From: Candidatus Omnitrophota bacterium
GTDB taxonomy: Bacteria > Omnitrophota > Gorgyraeia > Zapsychrales > Fredricksoniimonadaceae
DNA length: 64,000 nt
Direction of reading: 5' to 3'
NCBI GenBank assembly: GCA_028865345.1
Contig: JAGWKL010000002.1
Location: forward strand, 128,665 to 192,664
Shown here: in pieces, positions 10,343 to 54,355 of the stretch
Layout of the letters: the number at the start of each line of letters is the position of its first letter
Numbering within the stretch: the stretch's first letter is position 1
Position numbers and translations under genes: made by a program
Notes under the pieces: model-generated
What the model was told of the DNA's origin: nothing
What the model saw: the letters and a program-made list of their open reading frames with translations, nothing else
Database searches by the model: none

Positions 10343-10374
10343 ATTCCCTATTTCTTCGTTTTTCGTAAAGGGGT

Positions 10375-22000: not shown

Positions 22001-22279
22001 CCGCTGCGTGCCGCCGGATCCCACTTTCAAGAAAGTCCTGAAGCCCCGGATGGAACATATCCGGGGGGCTTTATTGGCCGGATAGAATTCCATAATGGCC
22101 CTGTCTTTGGATTCGATGCCGAAAGAGCAGATGGCCTGGGCCCGGTTGACATAAAAGGCCCACATGGGGATCCCGTACAACCCCGCAACGCCTGGAAAGA
22201 AATCCGAAAACAATTTGGCGTGCTGGTAGTCTTCAATGACAAAAGCGCCGCTTGCGTCCAAATAATACGGCTTATTCAT
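19067..22279 (-). CDS. Large conserved protein, putative (alpha/alpha)6-barrel glycoside phosphorylase/hydrolase-like
   Basis: About 1,070 aa with no signal peptide. Contains a WxDxLN-type motif (NWYDALNG) reminiscent of GH94/GH65 catalytic-acid regions. The start is MNKPYYLD, preceded by a GGAGAGAGGGA RBS. The functional call is tentative. Confidence 0.75.
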   Translation of the reverse strand: MNKPYYLDASGAFVIEDYQHAKLFSDFFPGVAGLYGIPMWAFYVNRAQAICSFGIESKDRAIMEFYPANKAPRICSIRGFRTFLKVGSGGTQRFYEPFDNSLVSPYKIRQRMLITAHDLTIEEVNNTLGIKTVVNYFTMPQEPFAALVRRVTFENIGRRRVDFSCVDGLPVINPYGLKDWLAKNMSRTVEAWSKVQNVGNKAPFYQLKVEVADTPQVTPIKEGNFYFAFDESTAKLLDVVVEASVVFGAASDFLVPENFITQKNFLLPALQETSNRTPSAMSVCRFSLAGGKRHSFASLVGFAHDLTELKKVVKKATAAKFIETKAGLNRQIIDGIRDHCFTHSSSDEFNQYCGQNFMDNVLRGGLPVTLQSAQGPCVFNVYGRKHGDLERDYNFFMLAPTFLSQGNGNYRDVNQNRRNDIWFNRDVKDSSLIDFLNLIQADGYNPLIIKGTFFVIKDEGMVHGLLNAFGIVQGADKIKEMLKKGFMPGDLLKLILREVPIKAKPVDFLTKVLGACVKHESVEPGEGFWTDHWTYNLDLIESYLRLYPENLREIFWEKKVFHFFLNDFYVLPRDARLVLTPVGVRQYHSLAEHDKEVKARAKGYKLRAANGQGEVYTTILLVKLICLLANKAASLDPSGIGIEMEANKPNWYDALNGLPGLLGSSISETFELKRFAVFVKEAIRQSRLDDQTTVEVFQELADFIQGLIHVLSTEADPLKYWQKATDLKEHFRQTVRYGIDGKERSLSIGEIKKFLDGIMERCSMAATKSRYDNGLFATYFTHEVIEYDLLDKSHHGQHVRAKTFRRHDLPLFLEGFVHAMRAGNGFPEAKAVYKAVRSSPLYDRALRAYKVNADLSKEPDEIGRTRIFPAGWLENGSIWLHMEYKYYLELLRSGLAEELFAEIREALVPFLDPQVYGRSILQNSSFIVSSAHEDKDLHGQGFVARLSGSTAEFLHMWLIMNMGTRPFVLDKHGRLALTFRPLLPSWLFTRKAKGPFAAHTYAFKLFGKTMITYHNPQMKDTYGNQGVSAQKIVLTYPDRRRVEFDGSTLNAPYARDVRQGAVDRIDVFLS

Positions 22280-23096
22280 ACAAAGTCCCTCTCTCCATTC
22301 TTCCCCCCTCAAACCTGAAACGCCTGAATAAATTATAATAACCTGAGAATTTAAACCACAAAATCAACCCTGAATACCTGTCATCCGTATTATTCATATG
22401 GATGCGTTTAAGCTCGTAGAAATCCCTGTCAAACCTGTCCTTGCCCCTGTTGGTTGTGACAGCGGCCTTAAATCCCGCCTGCGCCACCAGGCGCTTGATG
22501 TTCTCGGTAAAACCCCCATCCGGATAGCAAAAATAATCGATAGGGTGCCCTAAATGTCCCTCAATGATCCTTTTACTGCCAGCTATCTCGTTTTCCTGCT
22601 GGGCCAGGGTCAAACGGGGTAAATACGCGTGGTGCCGCGTGTGCGCCCCAAAAGAAATGTCGTGTTTTTCCATTTCTTTGATCTCGTCCCATGTAAGGCA
22701 GCCCGGTTTGCCCACCCAATCGGACACCAAAAATATCGTCGCAGGGAAACCGTACTTTTTGAGGATGGGAAAGGCGTATTTATAATTGTCCTCATAACCG
22801 TCATCCACTGTTATGACAATGGTATTCCGGGAGAACACCTGTCCTTTCTTCAGGCCCGTGACCAGATCATCTAAACTGATCACCTGAAAGCCGTGGCGTT
22901 TCATAAAATTCAACTGGTAATCAAAAGACTTTGAACTGACGTCGTTGAGGCGCCACTTGACTCCGGAAGGTATCCCCACATGATGGTACATCAGGACAGG
23001 GACAACATAGCGGTCACGCAGCCAAAAAGTAAATCCAATGGCTGAAATCACGATGACGGCGAGCAAGGCCAGAAAGATATTTCTTAAACTCCTCAT
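22272..23096 (-). CDS. Polysaccharide deacetylase (NodB-homology) family protein, membrane-anchored
   Basis: N-terminal TM segment. NodB motifs (TVDDGYEDNY; HTRHH). Confidence 0.85.
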   Translation of the reverse strand: MRSLRNIFLALLAVIVISAIGFTFWLRDRYVVPVLMYHHVGIPSGVKWRLNDVSSKSFDYQLNFMKRHGFQVISLDDLVTGLKKGQVFSRNTIVITVDDGYEDNYKYAFPILKKYGFPATIFLVSDWVGKPGCLTWDEIKEMEKHDISFGAHTRHHAYLPRLTLAQQENEIAGSKRIIEGHLGHPIDYFCYPDGGFTENIKRLVAQAGFKAAVTTNRGKDRFDRDFYELKRIHMNNTDDRYSGLILWFKFSGYYNLFRRFRFEGGRMERGTLYE

Positions 23097-30495: not shown

Positions 30496-31416
30496 TCACT
30501 GCCCCAGGGCCTTGGCATTCAAGGCGTTTTGCAACGATATTAATTGTGCATTCATCCACTCTTGAAACGTCAGATCAGGCGGCTGGATTGTTTCTGTAAC
30601 CCCCATAACAGGTATCCCCTCATCCGCTGCCAATTTCTTTATATTTTCAGTTAAAGGCGTAACGGTCTGCGCGTTATAAACTAAAACTTTGACTTGCCCG
30701 CTCTTTAATTGATCTTCGAATTCAATAACACTTCTTGCCGGCGGATCGTTACCCTCTGCGACCGCGTCGATGAATGCCGGCGGCGAAATGCAATCGAGGT
30801 CCGCAGCATCGGCAAGATATACAAATATACTTTCCGTGGAGGCGACCTTGGCTCCTCCAAACTTTTCTTTAATGAAGACGATCCTGTTCTGGTATTGGGC
30901 AAGTGAAGATTGCAGGGCCTTATATTGGCGCTCATAATACCCGGCATCGTTTGGATCGATTGAAATTAAATCTTTTTCCATTTGAGCCGTCACCCGATTG
31001 ACAAAACTTGGGTTATACCACAGATGGGGATTTTCTCCTTCCTTTACCCCAAGAAAATTGGCAACGTTCAAAACCTTGCGGCGAGGATTGCCGCCCGCAT
31101 TCAACAACTTGTCCATCCAGCTGTCATAACCGGCGCCGTTTTCGATCACATAATCAGCAGTTGATACGGACCTGGCGTCACCGGCATTGCTTTCATATTC
31201 GTGGGGATCAGCGTTAGGGTCTGAAACAACGCTGAAAACGCGCACCTTATCACCGCCCAGCTGAGATATAAGACTGCCCCAGAAATTTTCTGCCGCAACA
31301 ATTTGTATGACTTTAGTTGAATTGCCCGTTACCCGGCAATGGCCTGTTAAAGGCCCGCAAAGAACACTAAAAATAAAAACCGAGATGCTTATAAAAATGA
31401 TCCTGGAATTTAACAT
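30496..31416 (-). CDS. znuA: Metal ABC transporter substrate-binding protein (ZnuA/TroA family)
   Basis: Signal peptide. Metal-site DPHEYE motif. Confidence 0.85.
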   Translation of the reverse strand: MLNSRIIFISISVFIFSVLCGPLTGHCRVTGNSTKVIQIVAAENFWGSLISQLGGDKVRVFSVVSDPNADPHEYESNAGDARSVSTADYVIENGAGYDSWMDKLLNAGGNPRRKVLNVANFLGVKEGENPHLWYNPSFVNRVTAQMEKDLISIDPNDAGYYERQYKALQSSLAQYQNRIVFIKEKFGGAKVASTESIFVYLADAADLDCISPPAFIDAVAEGNDPPARSVIEFEDQLKSGQVKVLVYNAQTVTPLTENIKKLAADEGIPVMGVTETIQPPDLTFQEWMNAQLISLQNALNAKALGQ

Positions 31417-31457
31417 TGTTCACTCAGCATATTTGATTTCTCTTTAAATAAGCGTAA

Positions 31458-31472
31458 TTAGAAACTATTTCT
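31458..31472. promoter_or_regulatory. Putative Zur box (7-1-7 inverted repeat TAGAAACTATTTCTA) upstream of znuA
   Basis: Near-perfect palindrome about 40 nt upstream of the znuA ATG. It matches the box found at the fur-family gene. Confidence 0.45.
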
Positions 31473-31502
31473 ATCTAAAAATTAAAAAATTAAACCCTCC
31501 GG

Positions 31503-32192
31503 CTAAAACAATACCGCGCTATGTTTGTTTTTATAATACACGTATTCCTTCTGGACTTCTGCCGCCTGCGCGCTGTTGCCCATATGTCTGTACGCATCCG
31601 CCAAATCTCCAAGCATGGTCTGCATGCTCGTTAAACTGCGGAACCCTTCCCGGCCGTGACGGTATTTCAAAATGTCCGCTTCCAATACGGCTTGCACGTG
31701 AGGACCGCCCTGTCTTATGCGTTCAAAGCTATCAATGGCCTTTTGATAATCCTTCTTGGCGTAATAGGCCTTGCCCAATTCGTAAGAGGCCGCTCCCCTG
31801 TCTCGAGGATTTAATGCCAGGACTTTCTCAAATGCCGCAATGGCCTTATCAAGCCGGGATGTGTCCATATACGCATATCCTAAGGCCGTCCATGCCTCTA
31901 TATTATCCCTGTCAAGGGCGATGATCTTGTGGCATATACGGATAACATTATGGTATGAAAAACTGCCTTCATAGGATGTCACCCGGACAAGCATTTGTCC
32001 CAGGATAAAAGGCTTTAGTAAAACCAACAAGGCCCCCACCATCAGCACCGACAAGAACCAACGGCGGCCGCGTGTCAAGAATTGATGGTCGTGTTCATGG
32101 CCGTGTTCATGATTATGATCATGAGAATGGTCACAAGCACAGTCCTTGGTGTGTTCATGAGAATGATCCAACGTCTTTTTTGAATTGTCCAT
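31503..32192 (-). CDS. His-rich metal-binding N-terminus + TM + TPR-repeat protein
   Basis: N-terminus DHSHEHTKDCACDHSHDHNHEHGHEHDHQ. One TM segment. TPR repeats (WTALGYAYM...AIAAFEKVLALNP). Confidence 0.7.
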   Translation of the reverse strand: MDNSKKTLDHSHEHTKDCACDHSHDHNHEHGHEHDHQFLTRGRRWFLSVLMVGALLVLLKPFILGQMLVRVTSYEGSFSYHNVIRICHKIIALDRDNIEAWTALGYAYMDTSRLDKAIAAFEKVLALNPRDRGAASYELGKAYYAKKDYQKAIDSFERIRQGGPHVQAVLEADILKYRHGREGFRSLTSMQTMLGDLADAYRHMGNSAQAAEVQKEYVYYKNKHSAVLF

Positions 32193-32202
32193 GATACCTG
32201 TT

Positions 32203-32904
32203 TTAAGAAATCGTCACTAAAAAGATCCCTGTGACGATCAAAATATTCCCGACAATAAAACTGATGATCCCTTCCAAAATCTGCGTCTTGGGCATGAATT
32301 TTTTAAACAAGGCGGACGAGAACCCGATCACAATAATAGGAAGGCTCTGGCCCAGGGCAAAGCTGAAAAAAACCACCGCCGCATACAGGAGACTCCCCTT
32401 AATGGCGATGAGGCTCGCAATCAAAAGCAGAACTGCCCCGCAGCAGGGGCAGGCCGGCATTTCCAGAAAGGCATAAACCAATCCGAAGATAAATGCCGAG
32501 GGTATGCTTTTGACACCCTTGACCGCATTTTCACAATGGGTATTGATGCCCCCCTTGCCGAAAGAAACAAGGCCGGAAAAAAACAAGCCTCCTAAGATCA
32601 TCAAAGAGCCTAAAACCAGATAAAGGTATTCGCTGACGGCAACCAGCTTGGAGGCGACGTTGGCGATCGTGCCCAACAGGATGCCGATAAAGGTATAAGA
32701 TATGATCAGGCCGCTGGAAAAAGCAAGGGAAAGAAAAAATCCCCGGTGATGGGAATGGGACTTGGAAGAAACCAAGCCCAACAAGACCGGCAAACGCGCC
32801 AGGGTGCAGGAACTTAAACTGGCGATGGCTCCGGCAAGGGCCGCCACCAGCAAAATTTCTAATAACGACCCTCTCAAGAAGATGCTTTGGATATAGCTAA
32901 CCAT
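32203..32904 (-). CDS. DsbD/CcdA-superfamily-like polytopic membrane protein
   Basis: First TM carries LSSCTLARLPVLLG, reminiscent of the CcdA SPCVLP motif. A later TM carries CPCCG. An SHSHH motif is present. Family assignment is tentative. Confidence 0.55.
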   Translation of the reverse strand: MVSYIQSIFLRGSLLEILLVAALAGAIASLSSCTLARLPVLLGLVSSKSHSHHRGFFLSLAFSSGLIISYTFIGILLGTIANVASKLVAVSEYLYLVLGSLMILGGLFFSGLVSFGKGGINTHCENAVKGVKSIPSAFIFGLVYAFLEMPACPCCGAVLLLIASLIAIKGSLLYAAVVFFSFALGQSLPIIVIGFSSALFKKFMPKTQILEGIISFIVGNILIVTGIFLVTIS

Positions 32905-32945
32905 GGTTTTTCTTTATTGATACCGGCAAAAGTGTTCGGATAAAC

Positions 32946-33356
32946 CTACTGGCAATCCTTGCAGATACCGTTGATTTGCATCGAGTGGTTTAAAATTTTG
33001 TAACCCTTCACACTCTTAATATCGGGGAAAGAGCACTCCGGAAAAACATCCGCCTTGCCGCACTCCACACAAATAATGTGGTGGTGATGATGGCCGCTGT
33101 GGTCATGGCATAAAGCATAATAACGTTTACGCCCCTGGCGCTCAACCCTGAACAATATCCCTTGCTTGACGAAGATCTCCAGGTTCCGGTAAACGCTCGG
33201 AAACCCGGACTGCTTGAATGTTTTCTTGAGGTGCGTCCAGATGATCTCCGGCGACAAGCACTTGTCTTTTTTATCAAAAAGCTCCAGGATCGCCCGGCGT
33301 TTGGGGGTGATCTTAAAATGACCCTTCCTTAATTTTTGAATACACTCGACATTCAT
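32946..33356 (-). CDS. zur: Fur-family transcriptional regulator, likely Zur
   Basis: HHHHIICVECGK and other CxxC pairs. Winged-helix N-terminus. Confidence 0.85.
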   Translation of the reverse strand: MNVECIQKLRKGHFKITPKRRAILELFDKKDKCLSPEIIWTHLKKTFKQSGFPSVYRNLEIFVKQGILFRVERQGRKRYYALCHDHSGHHHHHIICVECGKADVFPECSFPDIKSVKGYKILNHSMQINGICKDCQ

Positions 33357-43958: not shown

Positions 43959-44405
43959 TTATCTGCCGTACATGGCCTGCAGCTGTTCGGTTGAAGGGAT
44001 CTGGTCGTAATATTCGCCCTGCGGGCCTATATAACCGTTCCCCGATCTTTTGAGCACCACCGCCGTATATCCTCCGGTGGAATTAGGGATATTGACCGTG
44101 ACCGTGTCCCCGGAATAGGTGATGTTGGTCACAGGAGCCGGTTGGCTGACAACTACCGGCGCCGGCTGTTGGACAACAGGTTTTTGGATTTGAGAACCCA
44201 CCGCGGCCCCGGTGACGGCGCCCAACGCGCCTCCGATCAAAGCCCCTGCCCCTGTGTCATGGCTTTGATGGCCTATAATACCCCCGGCCAGCATGCCCAG
44301 AGCGCCTCCGGCGGCGGCACCTTCGCCTTCATTATTATAGGGATTGCAGCCGGCAATAAAAGCGGCGAAAACAAACACTGTCAGGACATAAAAACATTTT
44401 TTCAT
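43959..44405 (-). CDS. Glycine-zipper lipoprotein with conserved ~50-aa C-terminal domain (paralogous to 36461..36994 C-terminus)
   Basis: Lipobox FIAGC. Gly-zipper region (GALGMLAGGIIG...GALIGGALGAVTGAAVG). The C-terminus TVTVNIPNSTGGYTAVVLKRSGNGYIGPQGEYY...QLQAMYGR matches the other protein. GGGGAG RBS before MKKCF. Confidence 0.65.
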   Translation of the reverse strand: MKKCFYVLTVFVFAAFIAGCNPYNNEGEGAAAGGALGMLAGGIIGHQSHDTGAGALIGGALGAVTGAAVGSQIQKPVVQQPAPVVVSQPAPVTNITYSGDTVTVNIPNSTGGYTAVVLKRSGNGYIGPQGEYYDQIPSTEQLQAMYGR

Positions 44406-44477
44406 TTTAAATCTCCCCAAAAACAGACAATCTAAATTATAGCAAACGCTGAACTTATTTCATCTAAAATCCGCTTC

Positions 44478-44849
44478 TCAACACACAACTTCCACGGTCC
44501 AGTGTTCATTGACCCAAAGGCCGATAACCTGTTGACTGGGCCAATGCGACTTGAGGCGTTTGGCCGCATCGTTGATTTGCTGGCGGTGCAAATTTTCTGC
44601 AACAGGGTTGCCCCGGCAATCGTGGTGGCCCACCACAAAAAGCATGGTTGATTTATTTAAATTAACCGAGATGGCAACGCTGCGTAGAACTTCCCTGATA
44701 TCTTCCTGGTCAGCCAAAACATGGTCCATACCTGCCTCGGTGATCACATCCACAAAATCCACGGGATAGTTCTCTTTGATCCAGTGCAATACCGGCAATT
44801 GCACGCGGCCGTCCATACAATTAAGACATGTTGCCCGTTTATCCACCAT
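44478..44849 (-). CDS. Compact beta-carbonic-anhydrase-like Zn-binding protein (hypothetical)
   Basis: C11-x-D13-x-R15 and H75-x-x-C78 resemble the beta-CA CxDxR...HxxCG zinc triad and Asp-Arg dyad. It is only 123 aa, so the assignment is tentative. Confidence 0.55.
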   Translation of the reverse strand: MVDKRATCLNCMDGRVQLPVLHWIKENYPVDFVDVITEAGMDHVLADQEDIREVLRSVAISVNLNKSTMLFVVGHHDCRGNPVAENLHRQQINDAAKRLKSHWPSQQVIGLWVNEHWTVEVVC

Positions 44850-45001
44850 TCCTCCGCTTAAAATGTTTTACCTATTCTAACCGCTCTGTCCTTTTAGACA
44901 ACGACAATTGCATAAAAGTTCCCCCAAAAGGCGCTTCCTGCCTCCCCGGGCTTGGTGGAAAGCGCCCTCTTTTTAACACGCCGGGCAAAAATAAACCACC
45001 C

Positions 45002-45232
45002 TTAAAACTCTTTGGTTAAAATGTTATAGATCGGTTGTGATCTCAGCCAAAGCGCGGCGGATTTTGCCGGATGTTGGGCGAGATACTGCTTGGCGTAACT
45101 ATTGATCCACTCCCTGCAAGCTCTTTCAAAGCCGATATCCTTCCCGGATTTTTCGCTTTCAATCCACTTATACCTGTTGATCTCATCCAGAACATCCTTG
45201 TCTTTCAACAGCTCTGTACTTGTGATGGACAT
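45002..45232 (-). CDS. Small hypothetical protein
   Basis: 76 aa with no TM segment and a conserved-looking charged/aromatic pattern. Family not recognised. Confidence 0.45.
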   Translation of the reverse strand: MSITSTELLKDKDVLDEINRYKWIESEKSGKDIGFERACREWINSYAKQYLAQHPAKSAALWLRSQPIYNILTKEF

Positions 45233-45383
45233 ATCTCCTCCTTGGAAAAAGAGAAAAAAACCGGACTTCTTAAATTTTGAATATTATAACACAAAAAAAA
45301 CGCAGACAAAAAAATAATCATAAAACCGGCCATCCGTAGTAATACTTATATGTCGACGGCCTCAAGAAAGATAAAATTTAAGC

Positions 45384-46007
45384 GTGGACACTTCCTTTAT
45401 CCTTCAAGCGGCGCTCACCGGCTTGTCCTTGGGGGCTTTCTGCCTGTCCTACTGTTTCCCTTTTTTGGCCACATTGATCGCCAGCACACCTCGAAGACCA
45501 AAGGAAAACTCAAAACTCATTTTTCAGTTCATTTTCGGCCGTTTCATCGGCTATCTGCTCTTCGGCTTCGCGTTCGGTTACGTAGGAGAAAAATTCCGCT
45601 CTCCTGTCCTGACCATCATGACGGATTTTTCCATGATCCTTATTTCTGTGATCCTGGTCCTTTATCTGTGCGGGGTCATCAAACAAAAAGAATCATGTTT
45701 GTGCTCAAAGTTCCATAACCGTAACGCCATGGCCATGGGCCTGCTCATGGGCATCAACATCTGCCCGCCGTTTTTGTTGTCCCTTCCCTATGTTTTCTCC
45801 CTGCACAGCACCTGGCTTGGGATTATTTATTTTATCGTTTTCTTTCTGACCAGTTCCGTCTATTTCCTGCCCATGATCTTTGTGGGAATGCTGGCCAGAA
45901 TAAAAGAATTCCGTTTGGTGGCCCGCATCAGCGGATTTATTTGTGCGGGCATTTTCACCTTCTCCGGATTCTATTCGCTGGTCCATATCTTGTTGCCCAA
46001 GCCGTAA
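45384..46007 (+). CDS. DsbD/TauE-superfamily-like 6-TM membrane protein
   Basis: First TM carries FCLSYCFPFLATL, which is CcdA-like. A later TM has INICPPF. First gene of a 3-gene plus-strand operon. Confidence 0.55.
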   Translation: MDTSFILQAALTGLSLGAFCLSYCFPFLATLIASTPRRPKENSKLIFQFIFGRFIGYLLFGFAFGYVGEKFRSPVLTIMTDFSMILISVILVLYLCGVIKQKESCLCSKFHNRNAMAMGLLMGINICPPFLLSLPYVFSLHSTWLGIIYFIVFFLTSSVYFLPMIFVGMLARIKEFRLVARISGFICAGIFTFSGFYSLVHILLPKP

Positions 46008-46020
46008 AAATGGAGGTCTT

Positions 46021-46332
46021 ATGTTAGGCGGCGCGTTCCTTAACAGGCTTGACAAGTTCGGCATGTGGATCCTGATGGCCATGGTCCTCGGTTTCGTCAT
46101 GACCGGCTACGGCATGACCAAACACATCATGGACCCCGTGTTGGCCAAATACATCCATACCCAATTGCTGCCTCTACCGCTGCTCATATTCTTTTGCATC
46201 CATGTGATCAAAGGCGTCCGTAATCAATTTAAAAAATGGAAGATCTTCGATAATGACCGCACCCTGGACATCTACGCCTATGCCCTGGTGCTGTCCGTCA
46301 CCGCCATCCTGATCTGGCTGTTTTTCCGTTGA
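46021..46332 (+). CDS. Small 3-TM membrane protein
   Basis: GGAGG RBS. Begins 14 nt after the previous stop. Its stop overlaps the radical SAM start. Confidence 0.5.
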   Translation: MLGGAFLNRLDKFGMWILMAMVLGFVMTGYGMTKHIMDPVLAKYIHTQLLPLPLLIFFCIHVIKGVRNQFKKWKIFDNDRTLDIYAYALVLSVTAILIWLFFR

Positions 46333-47459
46333 CCATGGGTCCCATCGTCAAAAAAATTCTCGCCGGCCTGTTTTTACTCTTGATCGTCGGATCATCCGTA
46401 CTGGTGGCCATCCAGCGCCAGCGGACCATCGGCTTAGAAGAAGACCCTTCCAAATTCCATGAAGCCCTGTATTACAGCAAACTTTACGGCGGTCTTGTCC
46501 AATGCAAGCTTTGCCCCAATCTATGCATTCTGGCGCCCGGCGAATACGGCATCTGCAAGGCGCGCAAAAATATCAACGGAAAGCTCTATTCCCTGGTTTA
46601 TGGCAAGATCGCTGCCGCCCACCTTGACCCCATTGAAAAAAAACCGTTTTTTCATGTGCTGCCGGGGGCGCAGGCTTTCTCCATCGCGACCACCGGCTGC
46701 AACATCCAATGCCTTTTTTGCCAGAACTGGGAGATCTCACAGGCCTTTCCCTTTGATGTCCCCACCCGGTCCGCCAGCCCCAAACAGGTGGTGCAAGAGG
46801 CCCTGGCCAGCGGGGCCCGCGCCATTGCCTTTACTTACAGCGAGCCCGTCATTTCTTATGAATATGTGCTGGACATTGCGAAGCTGGCCAAACAAGCGGG
46901 CTTGAAAACACTCATGGTCAGCAACGGCTACATAGAGCAAAAACCGCTTAAACGCCTCCTTAAATACATCGACGCTTTTAAAGTGGATTTCAAAGGCTTT
47001 GATGAAAAGTTCTATACAAGGCTCACCGCCGGGCACTTGCAACCGGTCCTGGAAACCATGAAAACCATCCATCAAAGCGGCGTCTGGCTTGAGATCGTCA
47101 CGTTGCTTGTCACGGGACAAAACGACAGCGACAGGCAGATCCGGGGACTGGCGGACTGGATCAAAACCAACCTGGGAGATGATGTGCCTTTGCATTTCTC
47201 GCGCTTCTACCCCCAATACAAACTGCTCAATGTGCCGCCCACCCCGCCGGAAACCGTGATCCGGGCCCGTGACATCGCCATGCAGGAAGGGTTGAAATAC
47301 GTTTATACGGGAAACATCGACTACCCTCCGGGCGAAATCACCTTCTGTCCAGAATCAGGTGAAAAAGTCATCGTGCGCCGGGGCATGTTCACCATTTATA
47401 ACGGCCTGGTCAACGGGGCTTGCAGCGATGGAGAAAAAATCCCGGGGATTTGGGATTAA
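46329..47459 (+). CDS. AmmeMemoRadiSam-type radical SAM enzyme (PFL-activase-like)
   Basis: N-terminal Cys cluster (CKLCPNLC...GICKARK), then GCNIQCLFCQNW (CxxxCxxC). Confidence 0.85.
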   Translation: MTMGPIVKKILAGLFLLLIVGSSVLVAIQRQRTIGLEEDPSKFHEALYYSKLYGGLVQCKLCPNLCILAPGEYGICKARKNINGKLYSLVYGKIAAAHLDPIEKKPFFHVLPGAQAFSIATTGCNIQCLFCQNWEISQAFPFDVPTRSASPKQVVQEALASGARAIAFTYSEPVISYEYVLDIAKLAKQAGLKTLMVSNGYIEQKPLKRLLKYIDAFKVDFKGFDEKFYTRLTAGHLQPVLETMKTIHQSGVWLEIVTLLVTGQNDSDRQIRGLADWIKTNLGDDVPLHFSRFYPQYKLLNVPPTPPETVIRARDIAMQEGLKYVYTGNIDYPPGEITFCPESGEKVIVRRGMFTIYNGLVNGACSDGEKIPGIWD

Positions 47460-49668
47460 AACCCCGATGCATGCTGATAACTGCAGCTAAAGCGACATTG
47501 ATCGCCATCAACAGCAAAAGCGTTTTGTATATGCCATAGGCCGGGATCATAAATACGCTTATACCCAAAGCCCCTGCACACGAACCAAAAAGATCAGCCG
47601 CGTAAATGCTTCCCAAAAGCGCGCGGTCGTTATCATTTTGCCCGGCAAGAAACAAAGTACTGGCATAAGAAAATTCCAAGCCGGTAAAAACACCTATCCC
47701 TGCCCCCAAAATGATCCAGACCTCAGGCAAAGGAAGATAGCCATAATGGCCAGCCGCCCGCATCAACCAAAACCAGATCAGAAAATAGGCGCCCATGCCT
47801 GCATGGAGTTTGGCGATCGAAGTAAACCCGCCAGAGATTTTCTTATTGCCCCCCCAAAAGCCGGGGGACAAACCCCAAAAAGTGCCCGCCGCTGCTGCCA
47901 GCATAAACGTAGCGATGATCCAGGCGATTTTATAATAAAGATCGCCGTAAAAGACCTGAAACCCATAAATCACGATGACCTCGGCGGCCATTAAAGAAAA
48001 ACCTCCCACAGCCATGACGGCAATGAGAAGGGGCCGGTTGGATGACGATGGACCGCGGGCCCAAAGGAACGGCAAGATCAGCCCTAGGGCCCCGATCAAA
48101 ACGATGAAATAATTCGTCCGCATGAGGCGGGCGAGCAAAGCGGCGAGACCCTGATGAAAAATACTGAACCAATAGATCAGATTGTAAAGATACCCCCGCG
48201 GATGCAGATCAGTATTGATCCGGGCCGTCCTGTCTGCCTTAAAAAAATCCCCGGCCGCGGCAATACGGTCTGTGGTGTACCGGTAAACAATGGCCGGCGC
48301 GGAAAGGAAATACGTAAGGATGCCCCTGGCTTTGAGCCTGCGGATGATCACCCGCGGGTCATGGGGCAAAGCCTGTTGCGAAGCTAAGATAAAAAGCGTA
48401 TCTCCCGGAAGTAGGACGACCGAACGAAAATTGTGTTTGATCGTCCTGTATATGCAGGAGCCCAAATGCCCCAAGGTGGCCGGTATGGTATCTGCTGCAA
48501 ATTTCAAATGCGTTGCCATGACTCCGCCGGCTTTTAAATGCCCCCGAACCTCTCTGAAAAAAGCATCGGTAAAATAGCGGTTGAGCAGGGCCGTCGACGG
48601 ATTGGGCAGATTGATGATGACCACGTCCAGGTCCGATGGGAGGTTCTCAAGCGAACGGCGCGGGTCGCCTTTGACCAAAACAACCTGCCCCTTTCTCAAA
48701 ATACCGTCCAAGGAGGGCGAGAGTGCCCGGGCAAGGCCGGTCATGGCTGGATCCAATTGGGCGTAATAGACCCTTTCAGGCTTATATTTTAATATCTCCT
48801 GCAGAGCGCCACTGAAACCGGCATCTATCAAAAGTACTTTTTGGGGGCCGGCATCGGAAAGCATGGGCAAATGGACAAGATATTCATTGAACGCCCTGTC
48901 CTTATCCGTGCCCACGGGCATGCCGCTTTCATAAAAATTGAGCTGGTCCCCGGTGCGCGTCACGGCAAGATTTCCGTGCACTGAATTCTTTGTTTCCACC
49001 AACTGTTCATTGGGAAACCTTAGGGCCGCAGTCCGGAAATTCAAAGGCCCCGAAAATAAAAAACAGGCCAAACACCAAAAGGCCGCTGCCATGGCAGCTA
49101 TAAAAAATTGTTTTTTAGCGGCGACACCGCTCCACAGGAGTCCGGCAAAGACCGCCGCCAAATTCAAGGCCGCAACGACACCACAGGTCCTAAACGCGTC
49201 GGCGAACACCAACCCGTAACTGAACACCAACCCGCCCAGGACAAAACCCAGGGCTTCGTAAAGATAGGCCTTGCGCTGGTCGTCCCATTCGGACACGGCG
49301 GAAAATTGCACCCCTAAACACAGGCACAAAGGGGCAATTGCCAAAAAAGAGACCACGATCGTCGGTAAAAAATCAGGAACCTGCCCGGCGGCGGCAAAAA
49401 AACTTTTACTTAAACGCGCGGCCAGGACCGTCAGCGGGAACAATACGCAAAGCGCCAAATGGCAGATGAGAACAAGCGCAAGGCCGCGGCAGGCTTTAGG
49501 CAGGAATTTGATGGCGAGGCTGCCTGCCGCCACCCAAAAAAGCCAGGCAAACAGGATCCAGCCGATGAAAAATTCATTACCCCAAAAACTGACGATCATT
49601 TCCCGGATCATAACGATCTGGGAAACCAAAGAAGAAAAACCCAGAACAAGAACTGAAAGGAAGAACAT
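47410..49668 (-). CDS. Polytopic membrane protein with C-terminal spermidine-synthase (PABS)-like domain
   Basis: About 12 TM helices at the N-terminus. The C-terminal region VLLIDAGFSGALQEILKY resembles aminopropyltransferase/SAM-MTase folds. Its 3' end overlaps the radical SAM gene convergently by 50 nt. Confidence 0.7.
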   Translation of the reverse strand: MFFLSVLVLGFSSLVSQIVMIREMIVSFWGNEFFIGWILFAWLFWVAAGSLAIKFLPKACRGLALVLICHLALCVLFPLTVLAARLSKSFFAAAGQVPDFLPTIVVSFLAIAPLCLCLGVQFSAVSEWDDQRKAYLYEALGFVLGGLVFSYGLVFADAFRTCGVVAALNLAAVFAGLLWSGVAAKKQFFIAAMAAAFWCLACFLFSGPLNFRTAALRFPNEQLVETKNSVHGNLAVTRTGDQLNFYESGMPVGTDKDRAFNEYLVHLPMLSDAGPQKVLLIDAGFSGALQEILKYKPERVYYAQLDPAMTGLARALSPSLDGILRKGQVVLVKGDPRRSLENLPSDLDVVIINLPNPSTALLNRYFTDAFFREVRGHLKAGGVMATHLKFAADTIPATLGHLGSCIYRTIKHNFRSVVLLPGDTLFILASQQALPHDPRVIIRRLKARGILTYFLSAPAIVYRYTTDRIAAAGDFFKADRTARINTDLHPRGYLYNLIYWFSIFHQGLAALLARLMRTNYFIVLIGALGLILPFLWARGPSSSNRPLLIAVMAVGGFSLMAAEVIVIYGFQVFYGDLYYKIAWIIATFMLAAAAGTFWGLSPGFWGGNKKISGGFTSIAKLHAGMGAYFLIWFWLMRAAGHYGYLPLPEVWIILGAGIGVFTGLEFSYASTLFLAGQNDNDRALLGSIYAADLFGSCAGALGISVFMIPAYGIYKTLLLLMAINVALAAVISMHRGFNPKSPGFFLHRCKPR

Positions 49669-49693: not shown

Positions 49694-51292
49694 CTACATT
49701 TCCCGGGCTTCGACTGTCCCCGAATGTCCCTTGTATACGGGGATCATGAGGACAAAAGGAACACAGGTAAAAAACATAAACATCAAAAACATAGAAATAT
49801 CATTGTACGCCATCATCTGGGCCTGCTGGGTCACCAGCCTGTTGATTAAGTCCATGGCCGCCTGCTTGGCTGTGCCTAAAGACATGCCCTGCCGGTACAG
49901 AAACGCCGTTGCCTGATGGAAAAACCTCTCAAAATTCGGATTAAAAGGATTGATATGCTCCGCCAGATAGACGTGATGGACCTGGGAATTCCTCTCGAAC
50001 AAGGTTGCCATGACCGCGTATCCAATATTGCCGCCGACCTGCTGGAAAAGATTAAACAGCCCTGATGCGGATGTCATAAGTTCCTTTTCCACGGAACTCA
50101 AAGCCACCGTCGATAAGGAAATAAAAATGAACGGCAGCCCGCTGCCCATCAAAAGAAGGGACGGCACGATATTACCCTGTCCCGCCGTGGTTGCCAGATG
50201 GGCCAACTGGAAGTAAGAAACGTTCACGACCGCAATGCCGTATAAAATCAATGCCCGCGGGTCTACAAGATTGTATAGCTTCCCGACCAAAGGCAGGACG
50301 CATATCAAGGCGATGGCCCTTGGCATCAGCACCAGGCCGGACTGATACGCCGGATAATTTAAAAGCTGCTGGGTAAACTGAGGTAAAATAAACGAAGTGC
50401 CGTACAGTGCTATCCCGAACAAAAGAATGACCACGACCCCCATGCGAAACTGGGCATTTTTAAAAATCCTTAAATTTACCACCGGCTCTTCGACGGACAA
50501 TTCCCAGACCACCAGCGCCAAAAGTGTTATCACTGTGAAAACCGCGGTCCATGCGATCCAACTGGACTCAAACCAGTTTTCCTGCTGCCCCCTTTCCAGG
50601 AAGACCTGCAGGCCGGTCAGGCCAAGCGTCAGCAAAACGATACCTGCCACATCTATCCTCTTGACACCCCGTTGAAGATAGGGAGGGTCAAAGACAAAAA
50701 GGCTGACCAAAAGCATCCCCACGACACTCACAGGTATGTTGATATAAAAAATCCACTGCCAGCCGTACTGGTCCGTGAGCCAGCCCCCTAATACCGGGCC
50801 GACGGCAGGCGCCACCACCACCCCCATGGAAAAAATCGCCATGGCCATGCCCTGTTCATTTCTGGGAAAAGTCTCGCGCAGGATGGCCTGGGCCAAAGGC
50901 ACCAGGCTCCCTCCGCCCATGCCCTGCAGGACGCGGCAGGCGATCATCTCCGGAAAGGTATGCGACATGCCGGCCAGGATCGACCCCACGGTAAAAACGA
51001 CAAAGGAAAGCAAATAAAAATTTTTTCTGCCCAAAAGACGCACCCACCAGCCGGACATGGTCAGCATGATGACGGCGGCGATGCTGTAGCTCGTCGCCAC
51101 CCAGGTGATCGCGGAGAGGTTCTGGCCGAAGCTGCCCATCATATGGGGAAGGGCCACATTGACGACATTGACGTCCATGATCGCCATGAAGGCGCCGAGA
51201 ACGACCGAAACAGCTACGGCCCATTTATTGGGGCTGTATTGCGCCGGGGGCGCCTGCCCCCCGGCTTTTGGGGGCAAAGAGGAGGAATTCAT
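49694..51292 (-). CDS. emrB: MFS DHA2-family efflux transporter (EmrB/QacA-like)
   Basis: 532 aa with 14 predicted TM helices and DHA2 motifs. Confidence 0.85.
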   Translation of the reverse strand: MNSSSLPPKAGGQAPPAQYSPNKWAVAVSVVLGAFMAIMDVNVVNVALPHMMGSFGQNLSAITWVATSYSIAAVIMLTMSGWWVRLLGRKNFYLLSFVVFTVGSILAGMSHTFPEMIACRVLQGMGGGSLVPLAQAILRETFPRNEQGMAMAIFSMGVVVAPAVGPVLGGWLTDQYGWQWIFYINIPVSVVGMLLVSLFVFDPPYLQRGVKRIDVAGIVLLTLGLTGLQVFLERGQQENWFESSWIAWTAVFTVITLLALVVWELSVEEPVVNLRIFKNAQFRMGVVVILLFGIALYGTSFILPQFTQQLLNYPAYQSGLVLMPRAIALICVLPLVGKLYNLVDPRALILYGIAVVNVSYFQLAHLATTAGQGNIVPSLLLMGSGLPFIFISLSTVALSSVEKELMTSASGLFNLFQQVGGNIGYAVMATLFERNSQVHHVYLAEHINPFNPNFERFFHQATAFLYRQGMSLGTAKQAAMDLINRLVTQQAQMMAYNDISMFLMFMFFTCVPFVLMIPVYKGHSGTVEAREM

Positions 51293-52182
51293 TTTGTTTT
51301 ACCTGAACTCAAATCGATCACGGGGACAACCGACATCCCCAGGACTAAAGGCCTTTTGGGATCGAGGGGCCCGTCAAAAATAATTTTAACGGGAACGCGC
51401 TGAACGACCTTGATGTAGTTGCCCGTCGCATTCTCGGCAGGCAGCAGGCTGAATTTTGAACCGGTCCCCTGCTGAATGCTGTCCACATGCCCGTGGAAAA
51501 CGGCCCCCGGATAAGCATCGACATGGATCACCACCTTCAATCCTGGATGGACATGCGTCATCTGCGTTTCTTTTAAATTAGCCACCACCCACCGGTCGGG
51601 AAAAACAACGGCCATCAGGGCCTGCCCCTGCTGCACGGACATGCCGGGTTCGACGCTCTTTTTGGTCACCGTTCCGTCGGCCGGCGAGGTGATTTTCGTA
51701 TAGGAAAGCTCAAGCTCTGCCTGTTCAAGCCTTGCCCGGGCCGCATCCACCTTGGCCTTATCAGTGTTCCAGCGCAGCATTGCCATATCAAACTGACGTT
51801 GGGAGATGTCCTTGGTGGCGAGCAATTTCGTATAACGCGCCACATCCTGCTTCGCCTGATCGGCATCGTCCTGTTTAGCTTGAAGGTCGGCCTTGGCCAG
51901 ATCAAAAGCGGCCTTATAATCACGGGGGTCTATATTACAAAGAAGATCGCCCGCCTTGACCGGTTGATTGTCATTGACATAAACTTTTTCAATATACCCC
52001 GAGACCCTGGGGCTGATGACAGTCACATCACCTTCGATAAAGGCATCGTCGCAGGATTCATGGGTAAAGACATAGTGCAGGACAAAGGCCAGCACCACCG
52101 CGGCAGCAATAGTCAATACGGACGCTATTTTCCAGAATCTCCGGTGAAACTCGTAAACCTTGCTGAATATCCTGCTGACCAT
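51289..52182 (-). CDS. emrA: HlyD-family membrane fusion protein (EmrA-like)
   Basis: N-terminal TM, coiled-coil and beta-barrel/lipoyl-like segments. Its start overlaps the tolC stop. Confidence 0.85.
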   Translation of the reverse strand: MVSRIFSKVYEFHRRFWKIASVLTIAAAVVLAFVLHYVFTHESCDDAFIEGDVTVISPRVSGYIEKVYVNDNQPVKAGDLLCNIDPRDYKAAFDLAKADLQAKQDDADQAKQDVARYTKLLATKDISQRQFDMAMLRWNTDKAKVDAARARLEQAELELSYTKITSPADGTVTKKSVEPGMSVQQGQALMAVVFPDRWVVANLKETQMTHVHPGLKVVIHVDAYPGAVFHGHVDSIQQGTGSKFSLLPAENATGNYIKVVQRVPVKIIFDGPLDPKRPLVLGMSVVPVIDLSSGKTK

Positions 52183-52200
52183 AATGACCTCTCTGCTTTT

Positions 52201-53574
52201 TTAAGAACGGCTTAAATGGAACGACTCTGTGCGGCCCAAGGCCGAATAATAGTTCACCCGCGCCATGTGATATTGTACCAGAGCCGACACATAAGATTGG
52301 CGTGTATTTTCAAGGGCGGCCTGGGCGTCGACCACCGCGATGTTATTGCCGACCCCTTCTGTGTATTGGCGCCTGGCAAGCCCCAGCTGTTGGCCCGCCA
52401 GCCGCAAAGCCTCGCTTGCGGCCTTCACCTCTTCCGTCGTCGTGCTCAACGTCTGCAGCGCCAGGCGAACATCCTCCTGGACTTGCGTTCGCATATCATC
52501 GTAAAGAGTCTTGGCCTGCTTAACCTGGGAGGCCTGTTGCCGGATCTCCCCTGCGATCTGTCCTCCTTCGAAAATGGGCACACTCACATTGACGGCGATC
52601 TGCGCGGCTTTATGGGCATATTTGTCGGGTTCAACGGCGGACTGCCCATAATTCCCGTAAAGGTCCACCTTGGGCAATCTTTCCCTGACCGCCTCCGACA
52701 GCCGGTATCGGGCATACCTGACCTTTGAAGAAGCAATGGACATCTCCCATCTATGTTTAAGGGCCGTGGCAATGGCATCAGAAAGCCCCATGGGTTTTTC
52801 TTTAAAAAAGATCAGGGAATCGCTTAAACTGAGTTCGCTGTTCAAAGGCAATCCGATGATACGCTTGAAGCCGAGCATTGCCGTGTCGAGCCTCTCAATA
52901 TCTTCCTGCTCCTTGGCACGCCGCTCTGCCAGCCGCGTTTGGGCCCTGACCACGTCCAAATTAGTGACAACACCCACTTTTAATTGGTGTTGGGCCAGGG
53001 ACACAAGCGTTTGGGCCAGACGCAGGTCTTCTTCAACGGCCTTTAATTGTTCCTGGGCCTGCAGCACATCCAGATAAGAAATGACTGCGGCCGTGACCAC
53101 CTGTTGTTGGGCCAGTTCTTTTTCCTCCCTGGCCATGGCCACGTCCATTTGGCCCGCCTGAAATTTGGATATGGCGCTCAAATCAAAGATCCGCTGGGTG
53201 ATTTGGAAGCGCGCATCGAAAGTATTGAACGGCCCGATAACGCCGAAAGCAGGCAGGCCCTGACCGGCGAAATTCTCCCAGAAAACCCTCCCTTGAGAAG
53301 CCCCGAACGAAAGATGGGGAAGAAGATCAGAATCGTTCTGCCATAGGCGGCCCCTGACTTCATCGATTTTTTCCACGGCGATCTTGAGCAGGACATTGTT
53401 GTGTTTGGCATCATCAATGGCTTGGGTAAGGCTGAGGTCCAAGGTCATGCCCTCATCATTGATTTCCTGCACGTCGTCTGCAGCCCGGGAAATAGGACCG
53501 AAACCCGTTAAGAAAAACACACTGACGAGCAATATCCCAAGCCTAACTGCGTTCCTTTGAGTTGTCATAATCAC
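52201..53574 (-). CDS. TolC-family outer-membrane efflux protein
   Basis: Signal peptide. Duplicated coiled-coil and beta repeats over 457 aa. Confidence 0.8.
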   Translation of the reverse strand: MIMTTQRNAVRLGILLVSVFFLTGFGPISRAADDVQEINDEGMTLDLSLTQAIDDAKHNNVLLKIAVEKIDEVRGRLWQNDSDLLPHLSFGASQGRVFWENFAGQGLPAFGVIGPFNTFDARFQITQRIFDLSAISKFQAGQMDVAMAREEKELAQQQVVTAAVISYLDVLQAQEQLKAVEEDLRLAQTLVSLAQHQLKVGVVTNLDVVRAQTRLAERRAKEQEDIERLDTAMLGFKRIIGLPLNSELSLSDSLIFFKEKPMGLSDAIATALKHRWEMSIASSKVRYARYRLSEAVRERLPKVDLYGNYGQSAVEPDKYAHKAAQIAVNVSVPIFEGGQIAGEIRQQASQVKQAKTLYDDMRTQVQEDVRLALQTLSTTTEEVKAASEALRLAGQQLGLARRQYTEGVGNNIAVVDAQAALENTRQSYVSALVQYHMARVNYYSALGRTESFHLSRS

Positions 53575-54089
53575 TTTCCAATTTCCCTGGCCCTGTTCCT
53601 CAGCCGTACAAGCAATTCGTTGAATATTTTCTTCTCATGAGCAGTAAGGACCTTACACAGATCATGGATGATCTTATAAAATCCCGGCAATATGTCTTCC
53701 AACAGTTTTTCTCCTTTGGGCAACAACTTGATCCTATTGACCCGGCGGTCATGGGGGTCGCTGATACGTTCCACCAGGCCCTTGCGGGAAAGGCTGTCCA
53801 CCAATCCGGTGATATTAGCGCGGCTGACGAGCATCAGTTGGCTGATCTCATTTTGTTTGCAAGCCTTGGACGGGCTGCGGCTCAATATCCTCAAAACATT
53901 AAACCCCGCCCGGGTGATCCCGAATGAGGTAACTGCATCCGACAGATGGTCGTTGACCACATCAAAGGTATACGTCAGGTTCAAAGCCGCTTCCACCGAA
54001 GGCCAGTCAAAGGCCGGATATCGGGCCCCGTGTTTTTTGACCTGGCTCCAATAGTATTCTTCCCTTCTGTCAATTTTGTGTTCCGGCAT
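53571..54089 (-). CDS. MarR-family transcriptional regulator
   Basis: Winged-HTH region (ISQLMLVSRANITGLVDSLSRKGLVER). The start MPEHK has a GGAGG RBS. Confidence 0.8.
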   Translation of the reverse strand: MPEHKIDRREEYYWSQVKKHGARYPAFDWPSVEAALNLTYTFDVVNDHLSDAVTSFGITRAGFNVLRILSRSPSKACKQNEISQLMLVSRANITGLVDSLSRKGLVERISDPHDRRVNRIKLLPKGEKLLEDILPGFYKIIHDLCKVLTAHEKKIFNELLVRLRNRAREIGK

Positions 54090-54355
54090 ATCGATCCCTC
54101 CTCCCTTCATGGCAAGCTTACAACGCCGGCTGTAATTTGTCAAGTACTTAACAGTTAATTACTTTACAAAATACGCACTTGCGCCCCAGGCAATAAGTAA
54201 TTTTACGTATGGCAAATTTCAACCTTTCGTAGTATGATTTCCCATCATTCCTCAAGCGCAAAATGCTTGAGCAGTGCGCCCTTCGGCGTCGCTTGGTTGT
54301 GTCATTGCAAGGCCCCGAAGGCGACGAAGCGATCTTATGGCTAATCACCTTTTAT

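Follow-up and report, generated by a model that had tools for sequence, protein, structure and literature searches.

A predicted outward-facing, membrane-tethered variant of the AmmeMemoRadiSam system with candidate redox-supply proteins in Omnitrophota

Memo and AMMECR1 are conserved from archaea to humans and are linked to human disease, and the main clue to what they do is their radical S-adenosylmethionine (SAM) enzyme partner in prokaryotes. To our knowledge, neither protein has an agreed biochemical function, and the AmmeMemoRadiSam system (TIGR04337 for the enzyme, TIGR04335 for protein A, and TIGR04336 for protein B) is functionally uncharacterised. Burroughs and colleagues are said to have linked Memo, in their 2019 abstract, to "nucleotide base and aliphatic isoprenoid modification". 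Here, we analyse a locus in 64 kb of DNA from a Candidatus Omnitrophota bacterium (contig JAGWKL010000002.1 of assembly GCA_028865345.1, positions 128,665 to 192,664; "the window" hereafter), in which a radical SAM gene follows the genes for a DsbD_2 protein and a small protein with 3 transmembrane (TM) helices, tm3. The original prediction, made from the DNA letters alone, was that of an orphan AmmeMemoRadiSam-type enzyme in an operon with 2 membrane proteins in place of its AMMECR1 and Memo partners. Our reading, of moderate confidence, is that this trio and a convergent gene for a PABS-like membrane protein form one functional four-gene module, which would be an outward-facing, membrane-tethered variant of the system with redox-supply proteins of its own. 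The module is found in Omnitrophota and relatives.

The enzyme reaches 357.9 bits on TIGR04337 (AmmeMemoSam_rS; cut-off 220), aligning to model positions 3 to 333 of 349, so that its predicted membership of this family stands. The predicted architecture, an N-terminal Cys cluster followed by GCNxxCxFCQN, was recovered as well: both motifs (C57-x2-C60-x3-C64-x9-C74 and GC122NIQC126LFC129QN) are intact, and their cysteines are invariant in an alignment of 81 homologues. To compare gene neighbourhoods, we used the enzyme as a seed to fetch 80 loci from contigs of one genome per species, and annotated their six-frame open reading frames (ORFs) with iterated hidden Markov models (HMMs) for 6 parts.

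Neither tblastn with a Memo-AMMECR1 fusion nor the iterated HMMs gave a significant match in the 64 kb window, and in this range the absence of AMMECR1 and Memo noted originally is borne out. The sister lineages tell a different story. In approximately 40 of the enzyme-seeded loci, Memo and AMMECR1 form one fused ORF. In L005, from a metagenome-assembled genome (MAG) whose enzyme is 65% identical to that of the window, the genes for DsbD_2, a 106-aa protein, and the enzyme are followed directly by a 507-aa Memo-AMMECR1 fusion and then by a convergent gene for a 760-aa Spermine_synth membrane protein. All 6 parts are present in the sister loci L005, L007, L013, L095, and L101, with a single fusion directly after the enzyme in each; the fusion passes TIGR04336 as well as TIGR04335, with 272 bits (cut-off 26) and 162 bits (cut-off 99) in L005. 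Proteins A and B thus occur beside the same trio in sister lineages, and the membrane proteins are therefore additions and not replacements; the proposals that they are present "instead of" AMMECR1 and Memo, and that the function is distinct from the canonical system, are not supported.

The four-gene module also recurs without the fusion and with varied flanking genes, in L006, L086, L087, L090, L093, and L094, which confirms that the trio is conserved together with the PABS-like gene. The L086 enzyme is 81% identical to that of the window and L087 lies on a 1.29-Mb contig; in both, the flanks are unrelated and the enzyme gene abuts the PABS-like gene. The same direct junction, again without the fusion, is seen in L088, L091, and L092, whose contigs end inside the enzyme gene. 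The simplest history would be that the Omnitrophota subclade of the window lost the fusion gene from the locus or relocated it. When an Omnitrophota fusion was searched against 5.8 billion proteins, none of the best 120 matches (at least 50% identity) was placed on a contig that matches in length one of the large contigs of the subclade (193,631, 197,836, 233,143, and 1,293,655 nt), and a subclade copy could rank just below these matches. The same 120 include proteins on contigs that carry enzymes at most 68% identical to that of the window, and they lend weak support to a true absence of the fusion from the subclade. Compared to the described system, the window locus differs in having no gene for protein A or B within 64 kb, in the N-terminal anchor and degenerate C-terminal motif (CPES...C-SD) of its enzyme, and in its partners, which are a DsbD_2 protein, tm3 with its 3 TM helices, and a PABS-like protein with 14. 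Where relatives have proteins A and B, these form a fusion with a signal peptide.

Across phyla, no partner is linked to the enzyme more consistently than the PABS-like protein. Its gene lies within 4.5 kb of the enzyme gene in 43 of 81 non-redundant enzyme-seeded loci, which span Acidobacteriota, Desulfobacterota, Nitrospirota, Omnitrophota, and others, with varying gene order and strand. The reverse search, for which a 6-sequence alignment served as seed (an 18-sequence alignment was too diverse), gave 80 metagenome loci, 64 of which carry the enzyme or Memo-AMMECR1. Since this is the case for 30 of the 35 PABS-seeded loci that are flanked by 2.5 kb or more on either side, we consider the PABS-like gene to be a core partner. 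In the original prediction, it appeared as a neighbour that overlaps the enzyme gene convergently by 50 nt. The overlap with the 3' end of the enzyme gene is real ORF geometry, but the gene is far more than an overlapping neighbour. The overlap itself stems from approximately 16 extra, lineage-specific C-terminal residues of the window protein and amounts to 4 nt in the 81%-identical relative and to zero in another, so that it has no conserved significance.

The PABS-like protein scores 55 bits on PF01564 (Spermine_synth). A rule-based topology averaged over 38 sequences predicts 7 TM helices, a soluble domain of approximately 315 residues, and another 7 TM helices, and the family-mean numbers of Lys plus Arg place the soluble domain outside (9.3 versus 2.1 in the C-terminal half and 6.4 versus 3.4 in the N-terminal half). 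With the spermidine synthase SpeE (PF01564; PRK03612 type), it shares a central region of approximately 200 residues, which aligns to solved SpeE structures (E = 6.5e-14 to Thermus SpeE), and glycine-rich and ELDP motifs that are conserved across the PABS-like family. It differs from SpeE in that two 7-TM blocks flank this domain, for which an outward orientation is predicted, in that all NCBIfam SpeE models stay far below their cut-offs (best 127.7 versus 472), and in its catalytic motif (residues approximately 270 to 355, window 48600-48860), where D-x-x-D-P is replaced by N-L-P-N-P in the window and by N-L-P-x-P, with conserved Asn and Pro, in the family. Because of this replacement, the protein is not an ordinary aminopropyltransferase. 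N-L-P-x-P presumably resembles the NPPY-type motif of N-methyltransferases.

To see where the enzyme might reside, we classed its N-termini at 121 classifiable loci by eye and with simple rules rather than with a dedicated predictor. Canonical twin-arginine translocation (Tat) signals are present at 78 loci, for example LDRRRFLKAA... and, in the cultured Desulfoferrobacter suflitae (L082), MNRREFLRHCG; examples are spread over L014-L085 and L105-L167 (L082:~9900-10990, L023, L105). A Sec-type N-terminus, i.e., a signal peptide, a lipobox, or a hydrophobic anchor, is found at 33 loci (e.g., MKRLIYNLVVLAVWGSLFLPVAHA/EN). The signal of the L016 enzyme is plainly cleavable (...VAHA/EN), and other Sec-type loci show lipoboxes. 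The remaining 10 loci, including both archaeal ones (L028 and L076), have no N-terminal extension. Nearly all of the Memo-AMMECR1 fusions have a Sec or lipoprotein signal at their N-terminus. An iron-sulphur (Fe-S) enzyme on the Tat route beside a cofactor-free partner on the Sec route would be expected of a truly exported system.

The accessory membrane proteins follow the same division. DsbD_2 is present in 31 of the 33 Sec-type loci, and all 78 Tat-type loci lack it. In the first set of loci, it adjoins 22 of 24 Sec-type enzymes versus 0 of 57 others (Fisher p = 7e-18), the 2 exceptions being L017, whose contig has just 1.1 kb downstream, and L043; metagenomes replicate the pattern (9 of 9 Sec-type versus 0 of 32 others). 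This is not just frozen synteny, because Omnitrophota loci with a signal-less enzyme (L030 and L057) have no DsbD_2, and because the gene lies upstream in one clade and downstream in another. By clustering the remaining flank ORFs, we identified 2 further families, which together cover 37 of the 78 Tat-type loci and are absent from all 33 Sec-type ones: a DUF362 protein with a Tat signal of its own, encoded directly upstream of the enzyme (35 of 78), and a NapH/NosR-like membrane polyferredoxin (Fer4_5; 20 of 78). Example loci are L120:5325-6371 (-), L073:8932-9981 (+), L062:7686-9446 (+), and L030:8146-10002 (+), and the L030 polyferredoxin carries an FMN_bind domain. Another flank cluster (cluster 2) was set aside, as 17 of its 37 ORFs are antisense overlaps of known genes and it comes from the same loci as other clusters. 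Thus, 2 mutually exclusive membrane redox sets appear to track the predicted route by which the enzyme crosses the membrane. Polyferredoxins of the NapH/NosR type, which feed periplasmic enzymes, adjoin Tat-type members and may fill there the role that we propose below for DsbD_2 and tm3; they are not present in the window and exclude DsbD_2.

The window enzyme is of the Sec type by virtue of a hydrophobic anchor at residues 8-26, which was overlooked in the original prediction. Such a segment is present in 116 of 117 full-length close homologues, with a mean of 19 uncharged residues, which is the length of an anchor. Over these 116 sequences, the N-terminal flank carries a net charge of +2 and the 15 residues on the C-terminal side one of +0.3, a bias that favours an orientation with the N-terminus inside and the C-terminus outside. 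The orientation call is insecure because 2 to 3 positive residues directly follow the helix. L010 and L104, from the same clade, have cleavable-looking signals or Pro/Thr-rich linkers. The other end of the enzyme varies as well: a CPxC...CxxC motif is complete in every homologue that has a Tat signal or no signal, as well as in the Sec-type clade whose DsbD_2 gene lies downstream, is cut to 2 cysteines in the clade of the window (residues 336-374, window 47340-47459), and is wholly lost in L005 and L011. Natural triple fusions of the enzyme, Memo, and AMMECR1 exist, namely L039:9995-12439 (+) and P0189; the L039 protein (801 aa) has neither a signal nor an internal hydrophobic segment.

The first gene of the trio encodes a protein with 6 predicted TM helices that scores 55.4 bits on PF13386 (DsbD_2; cut-off 24.9). 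It carries C20-x3-C24-F-P (TM1, nt 45441-45455) and C127-P-P (TM4, nt 45762-45764), and 22 enzyme-linked DsbD_2 homologues keep C-x3-C-x-P and C-(A/P)-P at these places. This Cys-Pro pattern is that of CcdA and DsbD. Like the CcdA/DsbD relay of cytochrome c maturation, the protein has 6 TM helices with Cys next to Pro in TM1 and TM4, and, by analogy, it would be tied to a Sec-type exported protein that needs reduced cofactor-binding cysteines. It differs from that relay in having C-x3-C in TM1 and not a single cysteine, and in its presumed client, which is an Fe-S enzyme and not an apocytochrome. The window contains a second, more canonical CcdA-like gene (32203-32904 (-); PF02683 and PF13386), unrelated to the enzyme locus. 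On one side it has a gene for a Fur-family regulator (32946-33356) and on the other one for a TPR protein (31503-32192), beyond which ZnuA is encoded (30496-31416; the whole stretch 30496-33356 (-)). BLASTP between the 2 DsbD-like proteins of the window was not significant, and they are related only through profiles.

The second protein, tm3, belongs to a small family, with 111 representatives at 50% identity among 1.84 billion proteins. Two of its histidines, H46 (nt 46156-46158) and H61 (nt 46201-46203), mark the 2 ends of TM2; both are invariant among 19 sequences of close relatives, and over 67 diverse members their conservation is 90% or higher. In 27 of these 67 relatives, a cytochrome b5 domain is fused to the C-terminus, and there are sub-threshold matches to cytochrome b561/Ni_hydr_CYTB (PF01292; 7 relatives), Sdh_cyt (PF01127; 5), and DUF4405 (3). 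The distant relatives P0302, P0303, P0309, P0315, P0333, and P0359 have 200 to 280 aa, with a low-complexity linker before the C-terminal cytochrome b5, and P0312 is an apparent tandem duplication of the tm3 type with a weak cytochrome b561 match. The loop between TM2 and TM3 is rich in positive residues, from which we predict that the N-terminus is inside and the C-terminus outside, and that a fused b5 domain would therefore be outside as well. Given the histidines, the b5 fusions, and the weak matches, tm3 is a candidate small b-type cytochrome. It resembles the small membrane b-type cytochromes (PF01292, PF01127, and DUF4405) in its 3 TM helices, in its 2 invariant histidines located 15 residues apart on one helix, and in the b5 fusions and weak family matches of its relatives; it differs from them in that no match of the tm3 family reaches a curated cut-off. 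The window protein itself has no Pfam or NCBIfam match and no cytochrome family model above cut-off, and a PDB sequence search with it returned nothing below E = 1. An AF2 model (pLDDT 78) shows a hairpin of 3 long helices, and its best Foldseek match, to the dihaem subunit C of fumarate reductase from Wolinella, falls short of significance (E = 1.6). Bis-His haem ligation by H46 and H61, at the 2 ends of TM2, would need a dimer.

From the observed gene linkage and signal patterns, we infer a topology, a thiol relay, haem binding, and a type of substrate. The enzyme would be inserted via Sec as a type II signal anchor, with its catalytic domain on the outer face of the cytoplasmic membrane. 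Because it would cross Sec unfolded, its 7 cluster-ligating cysteines would have to stay reduced outside, and DsbD_2 may relay cytoplasmic thiol reducing power to them, as CcdA does for apocytochrome c. tm3 would bind haem b via its 2 invariant histidines, probably as a dimer, and could pass single electrons across the membrane for the reductive cleavage of SAM. The enzyme would act together with the outward PABS-like domain on a substrate in the envelope or embedded in the membrane, with the PABS-like protein as an obligatory partner that handles a membrane-embedded or amine-bearing substrate. If the subclade of the window did lose or relocate Memo-AMMECR1, the enzyme and the PABS-like protein would be the minimal working pair there. 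A membrane-associated redox function, as suggested originally, is a reasonable reading of the locus.

Several points weigh against this mechanism. We know of no extracytoplasmic route that supplies SAM, a low-potential electron, or Fe-S clusters, and a radical SAM cluster could not be reduced by thiol/disulfide chemistry, which is far too oxidising. In the clade of the window, the positive residues straight after the anchor (QRQR, YRRE) make the orientation ambiguous. The correlation of DsbD_2 with the signal is partly phylogenetic, as Sec-type loci are mostly from Omnitrophota. For haem binding by tm3, no structural or sequence match reached significance, and the window PABS-like protein has DAGFSG where 92% of its family has GGG..G. 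In the Nitrospirota/Thermodesulfovibrionales loci L034, L049, L056, and L085, the enzyme has no signal, with a stop codon just upstream, and Memo-AMMECR1 has a lipoprotein signal; the components therefore need not share a compartment, and this pairing, which implies that the membrane separates them, suggests that the substrate resides in the membrane or crosses it. Finally, the metagenomic triple fusion P0189 (900 aa) has an N-terminal anchor and a hydrophobic segment between the enzyme and Memo-AMMECR1 and would, if real, set the two on opposite sides of the membrane. P0189 may be a deletion artefact because it does not have the invariant C-terminal IPGxW motif of the enzyme, and we judged it ambiguous as an argument on topology.

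Some of these points could be accommodated by the same module with a cytoplasmic catalytic domain, the main rival to our reading, which we consider rather unlikely. The N-terminal helix would then be a reverse anchor, with the N-terminus out and the C-terminus in, that holds the enzyme at its membrane partners; DsbD_2 and tm3 would export reductant for an outward step that the PABS-like domain or, in sister lineages, Memo-AMMECR1 would perform, and the substrate would cross the membrane. This fits the positive residues after the anchor, the hydrophobic segment kept in P0189, and the signal-less enzymes paired with lipoprotein Memo-AMMECR1 in Nitrospirota, and it avoids the extracellular supply problem, as SAM, reductant, and Fe-S assembly would be available in the ordinary way. 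It does not explain why DsbD_2 tracks the Sec-type N-terminus of the enzyme and not exported Memo-AMMECR1: signal-less and Tat-type loci all lack DsbD_2 despite an exported fusion. Moreover, the plainly cleavable signals of related Sec-type enzymes and the cleavable-looking ones of L010 and L104 within the clade argue against a reverse anchor, as does the charge bias around the helix.

There are 2 further rival explanations. DsbD_2 could be a solute or metal carrier of the LysE superfamily that exports, for example, iron, an Fe-S precursor, or another cofactor for the exported enzyme. Its 3 conserved membrane-embedded cysteines could ligate a metal, the clan of PF13386 presumably includes metal and small-solute exporters, and no gene for a thioredoxin-like acceptor was noticed beside DsbD_2, either by inspection or among the frequent flank clusters. 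However, the Cys-Pro motifs in TM1 and TM4 fit the CcdA/DsbD arrangement and the protein matches DsbD-type models only, which makes a carrier improbable. The other explanation, which we regard as very improbable, is that the enzyme is a PflA-type glycyl-radical activase or that the gene order is a chance juxtaposition. Activase models do give weak matches (35 to 68 bits, the best 68.5 and 65.2), but these are far under cut-offs of 231 to 500 bits (250.2 and 231.75 for the best two), and the enzyme clears TIGR04337 with 358 bits. In the window, the large ORFs encode PFOR, PEP carboxylase, glycogen phosphorylase, a TPR protein, and a protein without Pfam match, and none of them is a glycyl-radical enzyme, so that the activase with a nearby glycyl-radical enzyme, named originally as the finding that would overturn the assignment, can be dismissed. 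A chance juxtaposition is at odds with the recurrence of the module on more than 10 contigs with different flanking genes.

Returning to the outward-facing module, a bolder and more tentative proposal is that a large bacterial branch of AmmeMemoRadiSam performs radical SAM chemistry outside the cytoplasm, which we consider possible but doubtful. The majority would be exported folded via Tat and be served by DUF362 proteins and polyferredoxins. The Omnitrophota-type enzymes, exported unfolded through Sec, would for that reason have to gain their Fe-S clusters in the periplasm, helped by the CcdA-like protein and the small cytochrome b, with the PABS-like protein supplying or presenting SAM or substrate. 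Should the export be real, the cytoplasm is not the only site of radical SAM chemistry, which would surprise specialists; no radical SAM system would have been placed outside the cytoplasm before, and Fe-S clusters would for the first time be seen to enter a protein that has already passed Sec.

The bacterial system in any case exceeds the usual 3 genes, with a near-constant 14-TM partner of the spermidine-synthase fold, export signals on its soluble parts, and the 2 redox sets that go with the export route of the Fe-S enzyme. This extended context points to a substrate in the envelope or among membrane lipids and provides testable leads on Memo and AMMECR1. Cultured carriers such as D. suflitae are open to genetics, and the subclade of the window, with the enzyme, the PABS-like protein, and the redox proteins but without Memo-AMMECR1, would be a natural minimal system for study. 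Literature searches on radical SAM enzymes that are exported or periplasmic, on AMMECR1 together with spermidine synthase, and on DsbD_2 returned nothing relevant, and the literature searched has nothing on export signals in this enzyme family, the PABS-like partner, or the split between DsbD_2 and polyferredoxins. Some of this may already be mentioned in the chief earlier analysis of the gene contexts of Memo (Burroughs et al. 2019, J Biol Chem 294:10211, cited in PMC7159879 and PMC7694686).

The features of the locus are collected in Table 1. The 3 plus-strand ORFs are tightly packed between 45384 and 47459, as originally reported, and the operon-like arrangement of the trio is confirmed. 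The true start of the tm3 gene is an ATG with an upstream ribosome-binding site, 13 nt past the stop of the DsbD_2 gene. The enzyme may start at ATG 46335, 2 nt past the tm3 stop, or at TTG 46329, which overlaps that stop; databases use the ATG, and an exact look-up of the TTG-start form gave no match. Three NCBI "Candidatus Omnitrophica" MAG assemblies contain identical proteins, with gene calls that agree with the window. Promoter and terminator scans gave matches at chance level only, and an Rfam scan of 44400-47600 gave zero matches, SAM riboswitches included.

Table 1. Positions of the module genes and of enzyme motifs in the window.
Feature	Position	Strand	Remarks
Gene 1, DsbD_2/CcdA-like 6-TM protein	45384..46007	+	GTG start, 207 aa, PF13386
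Gene 2 (tm3), 3-TM protein, candidate small b-type cytochrome	46021..46332	+	103 aa; GGAGG ribosome-binding site, ATG start
Gene 3, AmmeMemoRadiSam-type radical SAM enzyme	46335..47459	+	374 aa from ATG; TIGR04337, PF04055
N-terminal hydrophobic anchor of the enzyme, residues 8-26	46356..46412	+	KK before, QRQR after; hydropathy 2.78
Four-cysteine motif of the enzyme, C57-x2-C60-x3-C64-x9-C74	46503..46556	+	presumed auxiliary metal/cluster site
Cluster motif of the enzyme, C122-x3-C126-x2-C129	46698..46721	+	invariant in 81 aligned homologues
PABS-like polytopic membrane protein	47410..49668	-	752 aa; PF01564; 7 TM + ~315-aa spermidine-synthase-fold domain + 7 TM

Elsewhere in the window, a 1081-aa ORF at 19067-22312 (-) has no Pfam match at E <= 0.001. 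Directly upstream of the module, 2 genes lie on the opposite strand, at 44478-44849 (-) and 45002-45232 (-); the product of one is a putative Pro_CA_2-family carbonic anhydrase (147 bits), and the other, an ORF of 76 aa, matches DUF4032 below threshold. Directly beyond the PABS-like gene, 49694-54143 (-) contains an EmrAB/TolC-like efflux set, consisting of an MFS transporter, a membrane fusion protein, an outer membrane factor, and a MarR regulator; such a set does not adjoin the PABS-like gene in L087 and does so in L086.

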